Below, in pieces: positions 1-15,020 of a stretch of DNA of 64,000 bases. The translations under genes and the position numbers were made by a program. A model generated the notes under the pieces. It was not told where the DNA came from and did no database searches. It saw nothing but the letters and a program-made list of their open reading frames with translations. Source of the stretch: Alphaproteobacteria bacterium (GTDB lineage: Bacteria > Pseudomonadota > Alphaproteobacteria > 16-39-46 > JAJRRM01); the NCBI GenBank assembly GCA_024279475.1, contig JAJRRM010000114.1, positions 6,803 to 70,802 of the forward strand. The letters are read 5' to 3'. Position 1 is the stretch's first letter. The number at the start of each line of letters is the position of its first letter.

Positions 1-737
1 CAAATCCCCACCTTTTTTAAAGCAAATGCATATAAATTCCATACATCTGAAGAAATGTGACTTCCATGATCATCTATGCATAAAGTTTCTCCTTTAATTT
101 TCATAGTGCAATGGCCCGCCAAATGCATTTCCTGCACTATAGATGCTGGTATACGACGAATATAATCATACGGATTAAAACTAAGATTTTTACTGCTAAC
201 AAAGACATTGTTAACATCCAGAATTAAACCGCACCCTGTTTTTTTACAAACTTCAGCTAAAAACTCTGGCTCCGCATAAGTATTTTCCTTAAAAGATAAA
301 TAGGTAGAAACGTTTTCAAGAATAATTTGCCTCCCTAAGAAATCCTGTGTTCTATCTATATTCTGACACAGCACTGTAAGAGCTTCCTCTGTATATGGTA
401 TTGGCAACAAATCATTAGTATAAACACCATCAATTTGACTCCAGCTCATATGCTCTGAAAATAAAAAAGGATTTAGCTCTTCTACTATCCCTTTGAGAAA
501 TTGTAAATGATCCTCACATACTGGCTGTGCACTGCCCAAGGAGAGACCAACACCGTGGATGCTCAGATCATAGTCATTTCTTATACATCTTAATTTATTT
601 AAAACCGTAGACCCAATGCAATTTTCCGCATGAACTTCAAAAAAATCTACCTTTGGCTTTTTTTCTAATATATCAGCTAAATGCTTAAAATTAAGCCCCA
701 CGCCAATAAGAGGCGGATTTTGAAGATTTTTAGTCAT
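1..737 (-). CDS. DUF692-family multinuclear non-heme iron oxidase (BufB/MbnB-like RiPP maturase); the 3' end runs off the left edge
   Basis: Absent from the ORF track because it is open to the window edge. My translation from ATG 737..735 reads MTKNLQNPPLIGVGLNFKHLADILEKKPKVDFFEVHAENCIGSTVLNKLRCIRNDYDLSIHGVGLSLGSAQPVCEDHLQFLKGIVE. The VDxFEVHxEN and LSxHGVGLSLGS motifs are DUF692 hallmarks. It lies 87 nt downstream of a DUF2282 gene on the same strand. Confidence 0.8.
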   Translation of the reverse strand, partial: MTKNLQNPPLIGVGLNFKHLADILEKKPKVDFFEVHAENCIGSTVLNKLRCIRNDYDLSIHGVGLSLGSAQPVCEDHLQFLKGIVEELNPFLFSEHMSWSQIDGVYTNDLLPIPYTEEALTVLCQNIDRTQDFLGRQIILENVSTYLSFKENTYAEPEFLAEVCKKTGCGLILDVNNVFVSSKNLSFNPYDYIRRIPASIVQEMHLAGHCTMKIKGETLCIDDHGSHISSDVWNLYAFALKKVGI

Positions 738-824
738 AAGTTTCACTTCTACTCTGCAATTTTCTCAGGCTCCTATTTTTCAATCCTCAGAAAGATTCTG
801 TATTTTCTCTGAGTAATAAGCCTT

Positions 825-1136
825 CTAAGCAGAGTCTTTTTCTGTATTTTCAATAGTAATCTTATTAACACCCTCTTTTGGCGCTAAGTTTCCACCATTA
901 ATACGAGAACATATACCTTTAGGAAGAATCATCCATGCAGCGCGATCACCATCTATAGTAGCCGAGCCAGAGCAGCTAGTTTTTCCTCCACTAGCACAAC
1001 CATTTTGGCCAGCCTTAACTATACCATAACATTTTTCTTTTAAGTGTTTCTTGTCAGCATCTTTATCTTCATTACAGCCACTAAGCGCTGCTGTTATAGC
1101 TGCTGCAATAAATGTCTTTGATGATATTTTTTTCAT
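825..1136 (-). CDS. DUF2282 (BufA/bufferin-like) Cys-containing RiPP precursor with a lipoprotein-type signal peptide
   Basis: Signal peptide ends in the lipobox LSGC. The core EKCYGIVKAGQNGCASGGKTSCSGSATIDGDRAAWMILPKGICSRINGG has the 4-Cys DUF2282 pattern (EKCYG...C...C...PxGxC). Good SD (GGGAAGGAAGTGG) before the ATG. Confidence 0.8.
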   Translation of the reverse strand: MKKISSKTFIAAAITAALSGCNEDKDADKKHLKEKCYGIVKAGQNGCASGGKTSCSGSATIDGDRAAWMILPKGICSRINGGNLAPKEGVNKITIENTEKDSA

Positions 1137-1478: not shown

Positions 1479-3455
1479 TTAAGATGCTGAGTTCGCGCTA
1501 TCATAAACTTCATCTAAGATGGCTGGTAAATCACTCCAACTTTCTACTATTGCATCCCCATTTCTAAATTCACGATATACTCCAACTTTTTGAAAATGCT
1601 TAAAAGCCTCTGAAATATTTGGATCTGGTTTAAACCAATCAGTATATCTATTTTTAAATTCAAAGAGAGCCTGAACAATTGGGGAATTTTTTGCAGCATC
1701 AGGTCCCCCAATAGCACCGACATACGTATAGTCTGGTTGACGCGGTGTTATCAAGAAGATTACAGACTTACGAGATTGAGTTGTAGTGTCTTTCTGAAAG
1801 AAATATTGCAACCCAGGTATATCACCAAGAACTGGAAAAGCACTAGTTGACTTTGAATCTGACCTCTGAGATAAACCGCCTAGAATTAATGTATCTCCAA
1901 TATTCATTTCTACCGTTGAGGTTATTTGGGTATGTCCCGAATATAAGGATTGACTAAAGTTTGATCCTGATGGAGCGCTTGAATCGTTAACAGTTTTTCT
2001 ATTTGCCTGTATATCTATCGACACCCTTCCATCACCTAAAAGAGTAGGTGTTACAATCATATTAAGACCGAGATTATAAGGCCCTGCTACGCTATTATCT
2101 CCATTACCAGAGGTAGCCACAACTATATCATTACCTGAAGAAAATGTAGCTTGTTTTCCGCTTAATGTTGTTAAAGTTGGTCTCGCTATAATTTCATTTC
2201 TCTCTCCAATAACATTTGCAATATTTAAAGAGTATGCAGTTGCATTTGATACAGTAAAAGAATTTCCTCCTGTTATCGTTTTATTTCCTGTTTGTTTGCT
2301 AATAGACTGACCCCAAGAGAATAGACCCTGAGCTGCCGCTGGGCTCTCTGACAAGGATATAGTTAAACCCTCTAAAAGATTCATCCCATAGGCCTGAGAA
2401 GATGACTCTTCTGCAATCATAATTACAAGATCAATAAGAACCATTTGGCCTTTAAAAGTAAGAGGTTTTGGCTGCGAAGCGTATGTTACTATCTCTTGCG
2501 TTACAGGACCCTTTAATAAGTCAGCAGCTACTGTAGCATTTCTATTTTTATAGGGATTCTCAATATCAGGCACCCTATAATTAGAAACCGATAAAGGAGG
2601 CTTTTTAGTTTCTTTTTTACCAGTATTTTTCTTGGAATTGATAGACTTTAGAGGTTTTTCAGAAATTTTTCCTATATCTTTTTTAGCGCTCTTTGGTACA
2701 TCTGATGCAGTATTCAAACCACTATCAATTTTAGACTGAACAACTTGGTATATATCACCCCATGTACTAATCCTGTTTTTTATATATCCTATATCTTTCG
2801 AATAGTTTCCTTTTAAAGCAACTAACCTATTCAAATACCCTTGCGATTTTTTCTTTTTATTAGCTGCAGCCATAACAATAGCTGCTGTGCGTAAATATAA
2901 AGGATTTTTTGCGTTTTTTTCCACAGCTTTTTCAATAGCACCCACCGCTACTATAAGATCATGTAGATAGTATGAGCTAACTGCCAAACCATACAGAGCT
3001 TTTGAAGATTTTGGATCCAATAAAAACGCTGCAGAAAAACTTCCTTGTGCTTGTGCATAGTTTTTTTTGTTCAATTCAACTGTTCCTTTATAGTAATGAA
3101 CAATAGAACTAGAGGGATCAAATTTTGCAGCTAATGCATAACCAACTTGTGCCATATCCAGATATTGATCATCCCCATTTCTCGCCATCAATTGATATAT
3201 ATAAGCATTAAAAAAATGAGCTAAAGAGTGTCTTGGTGCTACCTTTATCTGCATCCTAAACATTTTTGCAGCTACTTCAAGATCTCCTTTTTTTAGTTGC
3301 TTTATACCCTCTTTCATTATGGGGGACTTCAATGGATGACTTACTGAAATAGATGCCATAGAAAGTTTCTCTTGTTTCTGGGATGTCGTTTCACATCCAG
3401 CCAAAACAAAAGCAATTGAAATAGAAACCATTGATTGTCTCAAAAAGGCTTTCAT
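1479..3455 (-). CDS. outer-membrane secretin-family lipoprotein with an N-terminal TPR-like domain (pilotin-secretin-like fusion)
   Basis: Lipobox FVLAGC, then about 200 aa of TPR-like helical repeats and a K/S-rich linker. C-terminal secretin core motifs are VLIDLVIMIAEES, GDTLILGGL, FPVLGDIPGLQYFFQKD and VIFLITPR. Confidence 0.8.
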   Translation of the reverse strand: MKAFLRQSMVSISIAFVLAGCETTSQKQEKLSMASISVSHPLKSPIMKEGIKQLKKGDLEVAAKMFRMQIKVAPRHSLAHFFNAYIYQLMARNGDDQYLDMAQVGYALAAKFDPSSSIVHYYKGTVELNKKNYAQAQGSFSAAFLLDPKSSKALYGLAVSSYYLHDLIVAVGAIEKAVEKNAKNPLYLRTAAIVMAAANKKKKSQGYLNRLVALKGNYSKDIGYIKNRISTWGDIYQVVQSKIDSGLNTASDVPKSAKKDIGKISEKPLKSINSKKNTGKKETKKPPLSVSNYRVPDIENPYKNRNATVAADLLKGPVTQEIVTYASQPKPLTFKGQMVLIDLVIMIAEESSSQAYGMNLLEGLTISLSESPAAAQGLFSWGQSISKQTGNKTITGGNSFTVSNATAYSLNIANVIGERNEIIARPTLTTLSGKQATFSSGNDIVVATSGNGDNSVAGPYNLGLNMIVTPTLLGDGRVSIDIQANRKTVNDSSAPSGSNFSQSLYSGHTQITSTVEMNIGDTLILGGLSQRSDSKSTSAFPVLGDIPGLQYFFQKDTTTQSRKSVIFLITPRQPDYTYVGAIGGPDAAKNSPIVQALFEFKNRYTDWFKPDPNISEAFKHFQKVGVYREFRNGDAIVESWSDLPAILDEVYDSANSAS

Positions 3456-4458: not shown

Positions 4459-5379
4459 CTATTTACCAGAACTAGTAAGAGCTTTTTCTTTATCCAACGT
4501 TTTTTTCTGTACAGATCTATATCCATTTAAAACTTCTGTAAATTTTTTATCATCTCCTGGGCCCAAGCAGCCTCTAAGAAAAACACCATCTGGCCAGATA
4601 GAGTTGCAAACAGTGACCGATTCTAAAGCTTTTGCTTCAAAAAAAGAAGAACCTGTTAAATCAGCATTTTCCATAAAGACGTCTGCCATATTAGCACCCA
4701 TTAGGTTAGCCCCATTTAATGATGTCCCCAAAAATATTGCTCCAACCAATAAAGCATCTTGCATATTCACACCAGTCAACTTAGCCTTTGTGAAGTTAGC
4801 TCCTTTTAAATTTGCTTTTCGAAAGTTACTACCATTTAAAATGGCATTTTCAAAAATGGCTTCTGATAGGATAGCCTCTTCAAAGTTAGAATTTCCTAAC
4901 ACTGCTCCATAAAATGTACTATAAGGCATTTGAGCCCTATAAAAAGAAACGTTTTTTCCACTTGCTCCTGAAAAATTCATGTCAGGGCCTATAGTTTTAT
5001 CGAGTTTTGTATCTACTAGAAGTGCAAAAGAAAAATTTGTCCCATTGCACTTAGTACCTTGCATATTAACATTTTCTAAAGTTGCATATACAAAAGTAGC
5101 AGATACCAAGTTAGAGTTTGAAAAATTAATATCTTTTAATATTGCTTGAAAAAAGGAAGCCCCTTCTGCACTCCGGCCAGAAAAATTTACCCCTTCTAAA
5201 GAAAGCCCCTGAAAAAGACAATATTTGCAATCTTTCTCTGCAAGGAACCGACTTTTGCTCCCAACGGATAAAAGAGCTCCATAATAAAAGTAGTCTGGTT
5301 TTATTTCTTTCATATAACAACTACTTAAGAAAAGAAGCGAAATAAGAGCAAAGAAACTTTTTATTATTATTCTATCCAC
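4459..5379 (-). CDS. pentapeptide-repeat lipoprotein
   Basis: GTG start and lipobox LSSC. Long runs of A(N/D)LxG-type pentapeptides, e.g. ANLKGANFTKAKLTGVNMQDALLVGAIFLGTSLNGANLMGANMADVFMENADLTGSSF. Confidence 0.8.
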   Translation of the reverse strand: MDRIIIKSFFALISLLFLSSCYMKEIKPDYFYYGALLSVGSKSRFLAEKDCKYCLFQGLSLEGVNFSGRSAEGASFFQAILKDINFSNSNLVSATFVYATLENVNMQGTKCNGTNFSFALLVDTKLDKTIGPDMNFSGASGKNVSFYRAQMPYSTFYGAVLGNSNFEEAILSEAIFENAILNGSNFRKANLKGANFTKAKLTGVNMQDALLVGAIFLGTSLNGANLMGANMADVFMENADLTGSSFFEAKALESVTVCNSIWPDGVFLRGCLGPGDDKKFTEVLNGYRSVQKKTLDKEKALTSSGK

Positions 5380-5555: not shown

Positions 5556-6329
<774 letters not shown>

Positions 6330-13481: not shown

Positions 13482-15020
13482 ATGACAGCTCCCTTTCTTA
13501 ATAAAAAAAGCCCTCTTAGTCGTACGCGATCTTTTTTTTGGCCTATTCACGGATATGAAATGAAAAAATTTCTTCCTATGGCTATTATGATGTTCTTAGT
13601 TCTTTTTAACTATACAATTCTTCGCAATACAAAAGATGCTTTAATTGTGACTTTATGTGGCCCAGAGGTTATTCCTTTCTTAAAAGGTCTTCTTATTATG
13701 CCTATTTCTATCTTCTTTGTGGCACTTTATGCTAAGTGTCTTAACGTATATAAAGTTGAAACTGTTTTTTACCTTGCTATTAGCTTGTTTATTTCATTCT
13801 TTGCTTTTTTCTCTCTCTTTCTCTACCCCAATCATGAATTTTTAGAACCTTCTCCTGAAAAGATATTAGCCTTAAAAATAACCTATCCCTCTTTACAGCA
13901 TTTGATATCTGTCTATGGCAATTGGGTAGCATCTATTTTTTACATATTCTCTGAACTGTGGGGAACTCTTGTTTTAGGGCTATTATTTTGGCAGTTTGCC
14001 AACGAAATAACACGCATAGCAGAAGCCAAGCGTTTTTATCCTATGTTTGCCTTTCTAGGTCATTTTGGACTTATTGCTGCAGGACTTATTATGGTTTACT
14101 TATGCAAGTTTCAGTCAATAGGAAAACCCGGGGTAAAAATGTGCTCAAGCTATTTAAACGATATTATGTTAACAGTGATTGTAGCTTCTCTCCTCATTAT
14201 GGCTATTTATCGCTGGATGAATCTAAAAGTTTTAACAAATATACAATATTATGACGCAGCCTCTAAAGACTATAAAAAAAATTATCAAAGACCTAAGTAT
14301 TCTTTACGAGAAAGCTTTAAACACGTTATAAACTCTCCCTACATAGGCTTAATTTCTATTCTTGTTTTAGGCTATGGATTTTCTAATAATATATTAAGTC
14401 TTATTTGGAAAAAACAGATAAAACTACAGTATGATACTGTTGTGGAATATAGTCAATTCATGGCAAATTTTTCCTCTATTCTAGGGATTGTAACCGTAAT
14501 ACTTATCTATTTTTTCAAAGGCACCGTTCTTCGTTTTGGGTGGCTTAGTGGTGCTCTTGTAACGCCTATTTTTTTAGCTATTACAGGAAGTATTTTTTTC
14601 TATTTTATTTTTTTTGGCGATAAAATGTCTTCTTTTATAGCTCTGTTCATGGTTACACCTCTATTTTTTACGCTTATTATAGGAACAGTGCAGCAAGTAT
14701 TAAGTAAGTGTGCAAAATACTCTATGTTTGACCCTACAAAAGAAATGGCTTATATTCCTCTAGATCCTGACCTAAAAACCCGCGGTAAAGCAGCAGTTGA
14801 CGTAATTGGCCACACCTTCAGTAAAGCTAGTAGTGGTTATGTTGTAGGCGGACTTCTTATCCTTACTCAGGCAAGTGACTTAATGTTCATCGCCCCTTAT
14901 CTAGCTGGACTGATAGCGATTATGATTGTTGTTTGGATTTTAGCTACTCAAGCTCTCTACAAACGCTATAAAATATTATTAGCTCAAAAATCTGCTAAAG
15001 AAGAATCTTTATCCTCTTAA
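13482..15020 (+). CDS. tlc: ATP/ADP translocase (Tlc/NTT nucleotide transporter family)
   Basis: 512-aa polytopic protein. The N-terminus (FFWPIHGYEMKKFLPMAIMMFLVLFNYTILRNTKDALIV) and later motifs (FWQFANEIT, KRFYPMF, PTKEMAYIPLD) are typical of Rickettsia/Chlamydia-type nucleotide transporters. Confidence 0.9.
   Translation: MTAPFLNKKSPLSRTRSFFWPIHGYEMKKFLPMAIMMFLVLFNYTILRNTKDALIVTLCGPEVIPFLKGLLIMPISIFFVALYAKCLNVYKVETVFYLAISLFISFFAFFSLFLYPNHEFLEPSPEKILALKITYPSLQHLISVYGNWVASIFYIFSELWGTLVLGLLFWQFANEITRIAEAKRFYPMFAFLGHFGLIAAGLIMVYLCKFQSIGKPGVKMCSSYLNDIMLTVIVASLLIMAIYRWMNLKVLTNIQYYDAASKDYKKNYQRPKYSLRESFKHVINSPYIGLISILVLGYGFSNNILSLIWKKQIKLQYDTVVEYSQFMANFSSILGIVTVILIYFFKGTVLRFGWLSGALVTPIFLAITGSIFFYFIFFGDKMSSFIALFMVTPLFFTLIIGTVQQVLSKCAKYSMFDPTKEMAYIPLDPDLKTRGKAAVDVIGHTFSKASSGYVVGGLLILTQASDLMFIAPYLAGLIAIMIVVWILATQALYKRYKILLAQKSAKEESLSS

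Follow-up and report, generated by a model that had tools for sequence, protein, structure and literature searches.

A bufferin 1 gene cluster with a predicted lipoprotein leader and a possibly single-chain BufBC maturase in a small-genome alphaproteobacterium

Results

Gene content and order of the locus

At the left edge of the window, by which we mean the whole 64,000-nt stretch of DNA analysed here (contig C9:6803-70802), the minus strand carries a 103-codon gene, bufA, whose stop codon is followed 87 nt downstream by a second open reading frame (ORF) that starts at ATG 737 (or GTG 746) and exits the window. A sequence-only reading had assigned these two ORFs to a bufferin-type locus composed of a DUF2282 precursor and an MNIO enzyme, and had predicted that DUF2063 and possibly DoxX partners would lie past the left edge. 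To extend the sequence leftwards, we took positions C9:1-9000 (sequence L003), called ORFs and searched them against profiles. On the extended contig the operon runs, on the minus strand, from bufA through a fused bufB::bufC to doxX (bufD), with a gene for a hybrid histidine kinase beyond it. The features of the locus are listed below, in window coordinates unless marked C9.

825-1136, minus strand: bufA, 103-aa Buf1-type (DUF2282) bufferin precursor (ORF and Pfam PF10048)
1077-1136, minus strand: predicted signal peptide, BufA residues 1-20, with n-region MKKISSK and h-region TFIAAAITAAL
1074-1085, minus strand: lipobox L18-S19-G20-C21 (match to a PS51257-type rule)
885-1040, minus strand: DUF2282 core, BufA residues 33-84 (HMM envelope)
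828-884, minus strand: C-terminal tail, BufA residues 85-103, APKEGVNKITIENTEKDSA
738-824, minus strand: bufA-bufBC spacer, 87 nt, with a stem-loop (RNA fold)
1-737, minus strand: 5' part (MNIO/BufB domain) of bufB::bufC, continuing past the left edge
C9:5878-7548, minus strand: whole bufB::bufC ORF, 556 aa from GTG or 553 aa from ATG
C9:5418-5876, minus strand: doxX (bufD), left of the window, 152 aa
C9:3348-5414, minus strand: hybrid histidine kinase, left of the window

Both members of the proposed pair matched their families above curated cut-offs. For BufA, Pfam DUF2282 (PF10048) returned 72.7 bits against a gathering cut-off of 22.4, with the full model aligned to residues 33-84, and NCBIfam gave zero matches. 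The second ORF was present as it had been described, with the hallmark motifs VDFFEVHAEN and LSIHGVGLSLGS; its in-window part scored 288 bits with Pfam MbnB_TglH_ChrH and 311.4 bits with NCBIfam MNIO_BufB (cut-off 310), and the whole bufB::bufC ORF reached 328.7 bits with the former (PF05114, residues 14-276) and 348.7 bits against the same cut-off of 310 with the latter (NF050167, an equivalog model). The invariant MNIO residues H39, E41, N42, H64, H99, E144, D177, N180, H208, D225, H227 and E254 are retained and, going by published MbnB structures, would include the iron ligands. The partners predicted beyond the edge were likewise found: a DUF2063 domain lies directly downstream of the MNIO domain at 51-55 bits (51.3 bits for PF09836 in the bufB::bufC ORF against a cut-off of 27.2, residues 296-391), and then comes DoxX (PF07681, 65.4 bits against a cut-off of 23.6).

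The doxX gene starts 1 nt past the bufBC stop codon, and 3 nt separate it from the hybrid histidine kinase gene, whose product comprises one TM helix and HisKA, HATPase and REC domains. The kinase gene may share a transcript with the bufferin genes, and its product could substitute for the SigF/NrsF control of Caulobacter. The same position is kept in L018, an independent metagenome contig that is syntenic with the locus and carries the same flanking genes. The gene order in L018 is NMT1_3, TPR-secretin, a small ORF, bufA, bufB, bufC and doxX, continuing with the hybrid kinase, a polyketide cyclase, lipA and gltX; the encoded proteins are 66% (BufA), 64% (BufB), 40% (BufC) and 68% (DoxX) identical to those described here.

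RNA folding gives the bufA-bufBC spacer a moderately stable stem-loop of -24.5 kcal/mol (z = -2.44; 1 of 200 shuffled sequences was equally stable), which might tune the ratio of precursor to enzyme. A role as a conserved attenuator was considered and rejected, as in L018 bufA overlaps bufB and the stem-loop is missing. Scanning the operon for promoters and terminators gave zero terminators and fewer promoter-like sites than were obtained from shuffled sequences. Taken together, the locus is a complete and intact bufferin 1 (Buf1, 'captophorin') biosynthetic gene cluster of an already described type.

BufB and BufC are encoded by a single frame in the assembly

BufB and BufC form one uninterrupted 556-codon frame in the assembly, an arrangement that is hidden from a view restricted to the window. 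The BufC half scores weakly on the NCBIfam HvfC model (29.8 bits; cut-off 142); its residues 293-553 share 39.5% identity over 258 aligned positions with the BufC of L018, a free-standing 265-aa protein, indicating that the RRE-type half is also present. The linker that joins the two frames (C9:6543-6783) is lysine-rich and A-rich and contains A7 runs.

We consider the fusion likely to be genuine. The competing explanation, to which we give distinctly lower odds, is that the fusion is an assembly artefact and that bufB and bufC are in truth two genes, as they are in the syntenic relative. In L018, bufB (273 aa) and bufC (265 aa) are indeed separated by a 44-nt spacer. Moreover, the junction in the present assembly, CAGCAAAAAAATAAAG (...CAG CAA AAA AAT AAA GAA...), falls inside an A7 run, where a single extra A would introduce a TAA stop; 30 nt further on, an in-frame TTG matches the point at which the BufC of the relative begins; and the assembly is a fragmented metagenome-assembled genome (MAG) of 130 contigs that is 86% complete. 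A single miscounted A does not, however, reconcile the two sequences: the position of the relative's TGA stop is occupied here by a CAA codon and the spacer sequence is divergent, so that more than one indel separates L018 from this genome. MNIO-DUF2063 fusions of ~550 aa are also common and have arisen repeatedly, with dozens among the matches listed, and 9 of the 57 MNIO ORFs at the best 80 BufB loci are fused, for example in Noviherbaspirillum, Janthinobacterium, Duganella and Rhodoblastus. As the closest syntenic relative is unfused, any BufB::BufC fusion here would be of independent origin.

The BufA core contains four invariant cysteines

BufA is laid out as MKKISSKTFIAAAITAALSGC up to the predicted cleavage point and NEDKDADKKHLKEKCYG...NGC...SC...GIC...APKEGVNKITIENTEKDSA after it. 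In an alignment of 139 representative homologues, obtained from an exhaustive search of representatives, C36, C47, C55 and C76 were the sole invariant columns, in keeping with the earlier expectation that the four core cysteines would be conserved in orthologues. By analogy with characterised bufferins, we infer that CysI (C36) and CysIV (C76) form a disulfide pair and that CysII (C47) and CysIII (C55) are the sites of thiooxazole formation (PMC12452194, PMC11626156). Bufferin 2 (BUF_6/12Cys) is defined by six or twelve conserved cysteines with Cys-Lys motifs; the four core cysteines of BufA, together with the DUF2282 match, place it in Buf1 rather than Buf2.

An AF2 model of BufA is confident across core residues 33-88, with block means of 72-94, and of low confidence over residues 1-32 and the final ~14. 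The core is modelled with strands at residues 33-37 and 68-72 and a short helix at 76-78, which agrees with the two strands and short helix described for BufA1 (PMC11626156). In a PDB copy that contains no bufferin structure, neither a sequence search with BufA nor a Foldseek search with the model returned a meaningful match; GINS-like Foldseek matches with E ~1 were dismissed as noise.

Two departures from the family pattern were observed among these precursors. Residue 46 of BufA (window 999-1001, minus strand) is Gly, giving N-G-C before CysII in place of the N-D-C of the family, in which the Asp next to CysII is at least 90% conserved; both of the closest relatives retain it. Separately, an uncultured Holosporaceae MAG (L039, CAZEUR010000042.1) encodes a BufA-like precursor of 144 aa, an atypical Buf1 that has a proline-rich insert ahead of the core and, C-terminally, a long extension containing one extra Cys.

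The sequence-only reading had singled out a C-terminal tail of roughly 20 residues as unusual. The tail exists, extending 19 aa past the DUF2282 model, but it is not unusual: BufA has 27 residues after CysIV, and 24% of the 139 representatives have as many or more. We rejected the tail as a distinctive feature because its length is within the family range. It has a pLDDT of ~59 in the AF2 model and is probably disordered, and the motif GVNK[IV]xI[EQ][ND]TEK is conserved between it and the tail of P0123 (GVNKVIIQDTEK).

The BufA leader ends in a predicted lipobox

The BufA leader, MKKISSK-TFIAAAITAAL-SGC, has the positive n-region and hydrophobic h-region (11 residues) of a Sec signal, and its cleavage type is predicted to be SPII, not SPI. 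Signal peptide and lipobox were assigned by pattern rule only, using a PROSITE PS51257-type rule (K or R among the first seven residues, a run of six uncharged ones, then [LIVMFWSTAG]2-[LIVMFYSTAGCQ]-[AGS]-C) that the leader satisfies with the Cys at position 21. Cys21 is thus the predicted diacylglyceryl acceptor and the predicted first residue of the mature protein. The rule was also satisfied in L018, in a same-family genome (G001) and in a class-level genome (G022). The position of the Cys is kept across the lineage, with LSGC here, LASC in P0123/L018 and LSAC in the same-family genome, and the residues at -1 to -3 are variable; the LSGC lipobox of the class-level genome is an independent occurrence. 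Processing enzymes are encoded in the genome, with matches of 126 bits for LspA, 247 bits for Lgt and 33 bits for LolA. The LSGC lipobox that had been noted at the end of the leader therefore stands, given the match to the rule, the conservation of the Cys in the lineage and the presence of Lgt and LspA.

It is nonetheless conceivable, if improbable, that BufA is an ordinary soluble periplasmic bufferin that is cleaved by SPI, for example between ALS and G, with Cys21 either incidental or an extra metal ligand. Such a protein would be typical of the family. The strict lipobox rule was satisfied by 6 of 143 Buf1 representatives (~4%) and by none of the 48 Buf1 precursors that adjoin the best 80 BufB loci in named genomes, so that plain Sec signals occur in at least 96% of the Buf1 precursors sampled (137/143 representatives and 48/48 from named genomes). 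Plain signal peptides without a lipobox are found, for example, in G002, an order-level relative, and in P0122, which is 47% identical, and the literature searched contained no experimental lipidation of any Buf1. These frequencies must be weighed against the leader itself: the three members of the lineage all have this Cys at an identical position in a canonical lipobox, with variable neighbouring residues; no A-x-A site occurs after Cys21; the stretch that follows it is polar and acidic, resembling a lipoprotein tether; and the genome encodes Lgt and LspA.

The earlier suggestion that a lipobox is unusual in such a precursor holds in so far as it is rare in Buf1, but the concept is already in print (PMC12452194, PMC13056109). 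Lipoprotein signals have been predicted for ~16% of Buf2 (PMC12452194), SPII signals have been reported in subsets of bufferins and oxazolins, and lipidation of the MNIO RiPP DybA via the SPII route has been shown experimentally, with triacylation in E. coli (PMC13056109).

Lipobox-like leaders were also observed on two proteins encoded nearby on the minus strand, a pentapeptide-repeat protein (window 4459-5379; ...LFLSSC) and a TPR-secretin (window 1479-3455; ...VLAGC), and several neighbouring envelope proteins therefore look lipid-anchored.

Neighbouring genes and host genome

The TPR-secretin cassette was considered as a candidate bufferin exporter, as it lies on the same strand as bufA at a distance of 79 nt and is adjacent in L018 too. 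We rejected this link, as secretin homologues occur in five order-level genomes without DUF2282, secretin and bufA are on different contigs in G002 and G019, and in G001 bufA comes after a Tag glycosylase gene; the TPR-secretin adjoins bufA only in this genome and in L018. Elsewhere in the neighbourhood, the product of window 5556-6329 (minus strand) is an exported protein of 257 aa in which Ser/Lys-rich repeats accompany a pair of very long poly-Asp/Glu tracts; translated from the opposite strand, the same stretch reads as poly-Ser.

The assembly amounts to 1.56 Mb. TLC-family ATP/ADP translocases are a hallmark of energy-parasitic intracellular bacteria, and the genome encodes two of them, one in the window (~13506-14969, plus strand; C9:20308-21771; 525 bits) and the other on contig C43, which supports the view, first put forward from the window, that this is the genome of an intracellular organism. 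Among named genomes, the nearest neighbours of BufB include Holosporaceae and Rickettsiaceae MAGs. We place the host among Holosporales/Rickettsiales-like alphaproteobacteria with small genomes and ATP/ADP translocases; it also has a Cu-type P1B ATPase, which is split across contig ends.

The DUF2282 precursor is single-copy in this organism. The same-family genome likewise carries a bufferin locus, and DUF2282 was found in 15 of 41 related genomes, several of which are no larger than 2 Mb. Given this distribution and the several Buf1 copies carried by Legionella (PMC12452194, PMC5413113), retention of a bufferin in a host-dependent bacterium is plausible and not unprecedented. That the bufferin is retained and conserved in position in reduced, host-dependent genomes fits with copper stress in the intracellular niche.

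Discussion

A model for a lipid-tethered bufferin

We interpret the locus as a Buf1 operon that specifies a thiooxazole-bearing, lipid-tethered periplasmic copper chelator, and assign a probability of roughly 0.8 to this explanation as a whole, in which functions are assigned by analogy. In characterised bufferins the central cysteines become thiooxazoles, the outer cysteines form a disulfide, and Cu(II) is bound with femtomolar affinity (PMC11626156, PMC12452194). In the model that we propose, the cytoplasmic MNIO domain (BufB) and the attached DUF2063-RRE (BufC) would convert C47 and C55 into 5-thiooxazoles, after which the precursor, whose signal is seen in the sequence, would be exported by Sec. 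As the leader ends in a lipobox, Lgt would then add diacylglycerol to Cys21 and LspA would cut before it; lipidation at this residue would mean that the enzyme must leave Cys21 unmodified. Following formation of the C36-C76 disulfide, the 83-residue mature protein would be tethered to the membrane by a flexible linker of ~14 residues and face the periplasm. The membrane is probably the outer membrane, reached by Lol sorting, as suggested by the Asn at +2 and the presence of LolA, with the proviso that the sorting rules of this lineage may differ. There, the tethered protein would bind excess periplasmic copper, and the host would keep one periplasmic copper buffer beside its P1B copper ATPase.

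It is doubtful that bufferin chemistry serves something other than copper defence here, namely another soft metal (Au, Ag, Hg or Zn) or, together with DoxX, protection against redox or sulphur stress: the literature leaves room for such roles in its gold-induced gig operons, MerC fusions and the link of DoxX to oxidative and sulphur stress (PMC12452194), and the locus has a linked hybrid histidine kinase in place of a copper-responsive regulator (SigF/NrsF or CueR), but all characterised members are copper-binding and copper-induced, and the genome has its own Cu-type P1B ATPase.

Among the relatives examined, a lipobox was seen in three cases, each in a genome of at most 1.9 Mb, and we tentatively raise the idea, which we regard as more speculative than our model, that lipid-anchored Buf1 bufferins are a recurrent adaptation of small-genome, host-associated bacteria. 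If this were true, tethering to the envelope would prevent loss of a costly RiPP and concentrate thiooxazole sites where host copper enters, and the fused BufBC, in sparing the lipobox Cys while oxidising two others, would be a natural test of how MNIO enzymes choose cysteines.

Knowledge of how bufferins work is unchanged by this locus. What it adds is a clean example of a Buf1 whose leader is predicted to be of the lipoprotein type and whose BufBC maturase is possibly a single chain, in an uncultured small-genome alphaproteobacterium, and the two-gene set of bufA and bufBC would offer a compact system for studying SPII lipidation after thiooxazole installation and the discrimination by one enzyme among five cysteines.

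Comparison with known systems

The best-matched characterised system is bufA1B1C1D1 of Caulobacter vibrioides (CCNA_03363-03366; PMC11626156), which has the same four families in the same order. As in bufferin 1 of that species, the precursor has four cysteines, an N-terminal export signal and no classical RiPP leader, and is predicted to form a small folded core of two strands and a short helix. The two systems differ in that the leader is predicted here to be SPII rather than SPI, BufB and BufC form one polypeptide in the assembly, no SigF/NrsF is linked and a hybrid histidine kinase comes after DoxX, CysII is preceded by N-G-C rather than N-D-C, and the host is a small-genome, intracellular-type bacterium.

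With lipoprotein-type Buf2 and DybA (PMC12452194; PMC13056109), the locus shares a Cys-rich precursor that serves as substrate for an MNIO enzyme and has a lipobox at the end of its leader, as well as the expected course of cytoplasmic modification, Sec export, Lgt/LspA processing and membrane tethering. Unlike Buf2 (6/12-Cys) and the chryseobasin-like DybA, the precursor here is a 4-Cys DUF2282 protein (Buf1), a group in which lipoboxes are found at a frequency of ~0-4% in our samples compared with the ~16% reported for Buf2 (PMC12452194).

Retention of bufferins by an intracellularly replicating bacterium has a parallel in Legionella pneumophila, which replicates inside amoebae and macrophages and whose GIG/bufferin operons are copper- and gold-responsive (PMC5413113; PMC12452194). 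In contrast to the single copy found here, L. pneumophila has a large genome and up to five Buf1 genes.

Finally, the single chain of ~550 aa resembles the 'MNIO family bufferin maturase' proteins of Oxalobacteraceae and other Pseudomonadota (P0059, P0103 and P0116, for example), in which PF05114 is likewise followed by PF09836 and the gene adjoins a DUF2282 precursor, although overall identity to bufB::bufC is only 32-36%. The locus thus combines two architectural features found in a minority of systems, the predicted SPII leader and what may be a fused BufBC, and each of them has precedent.
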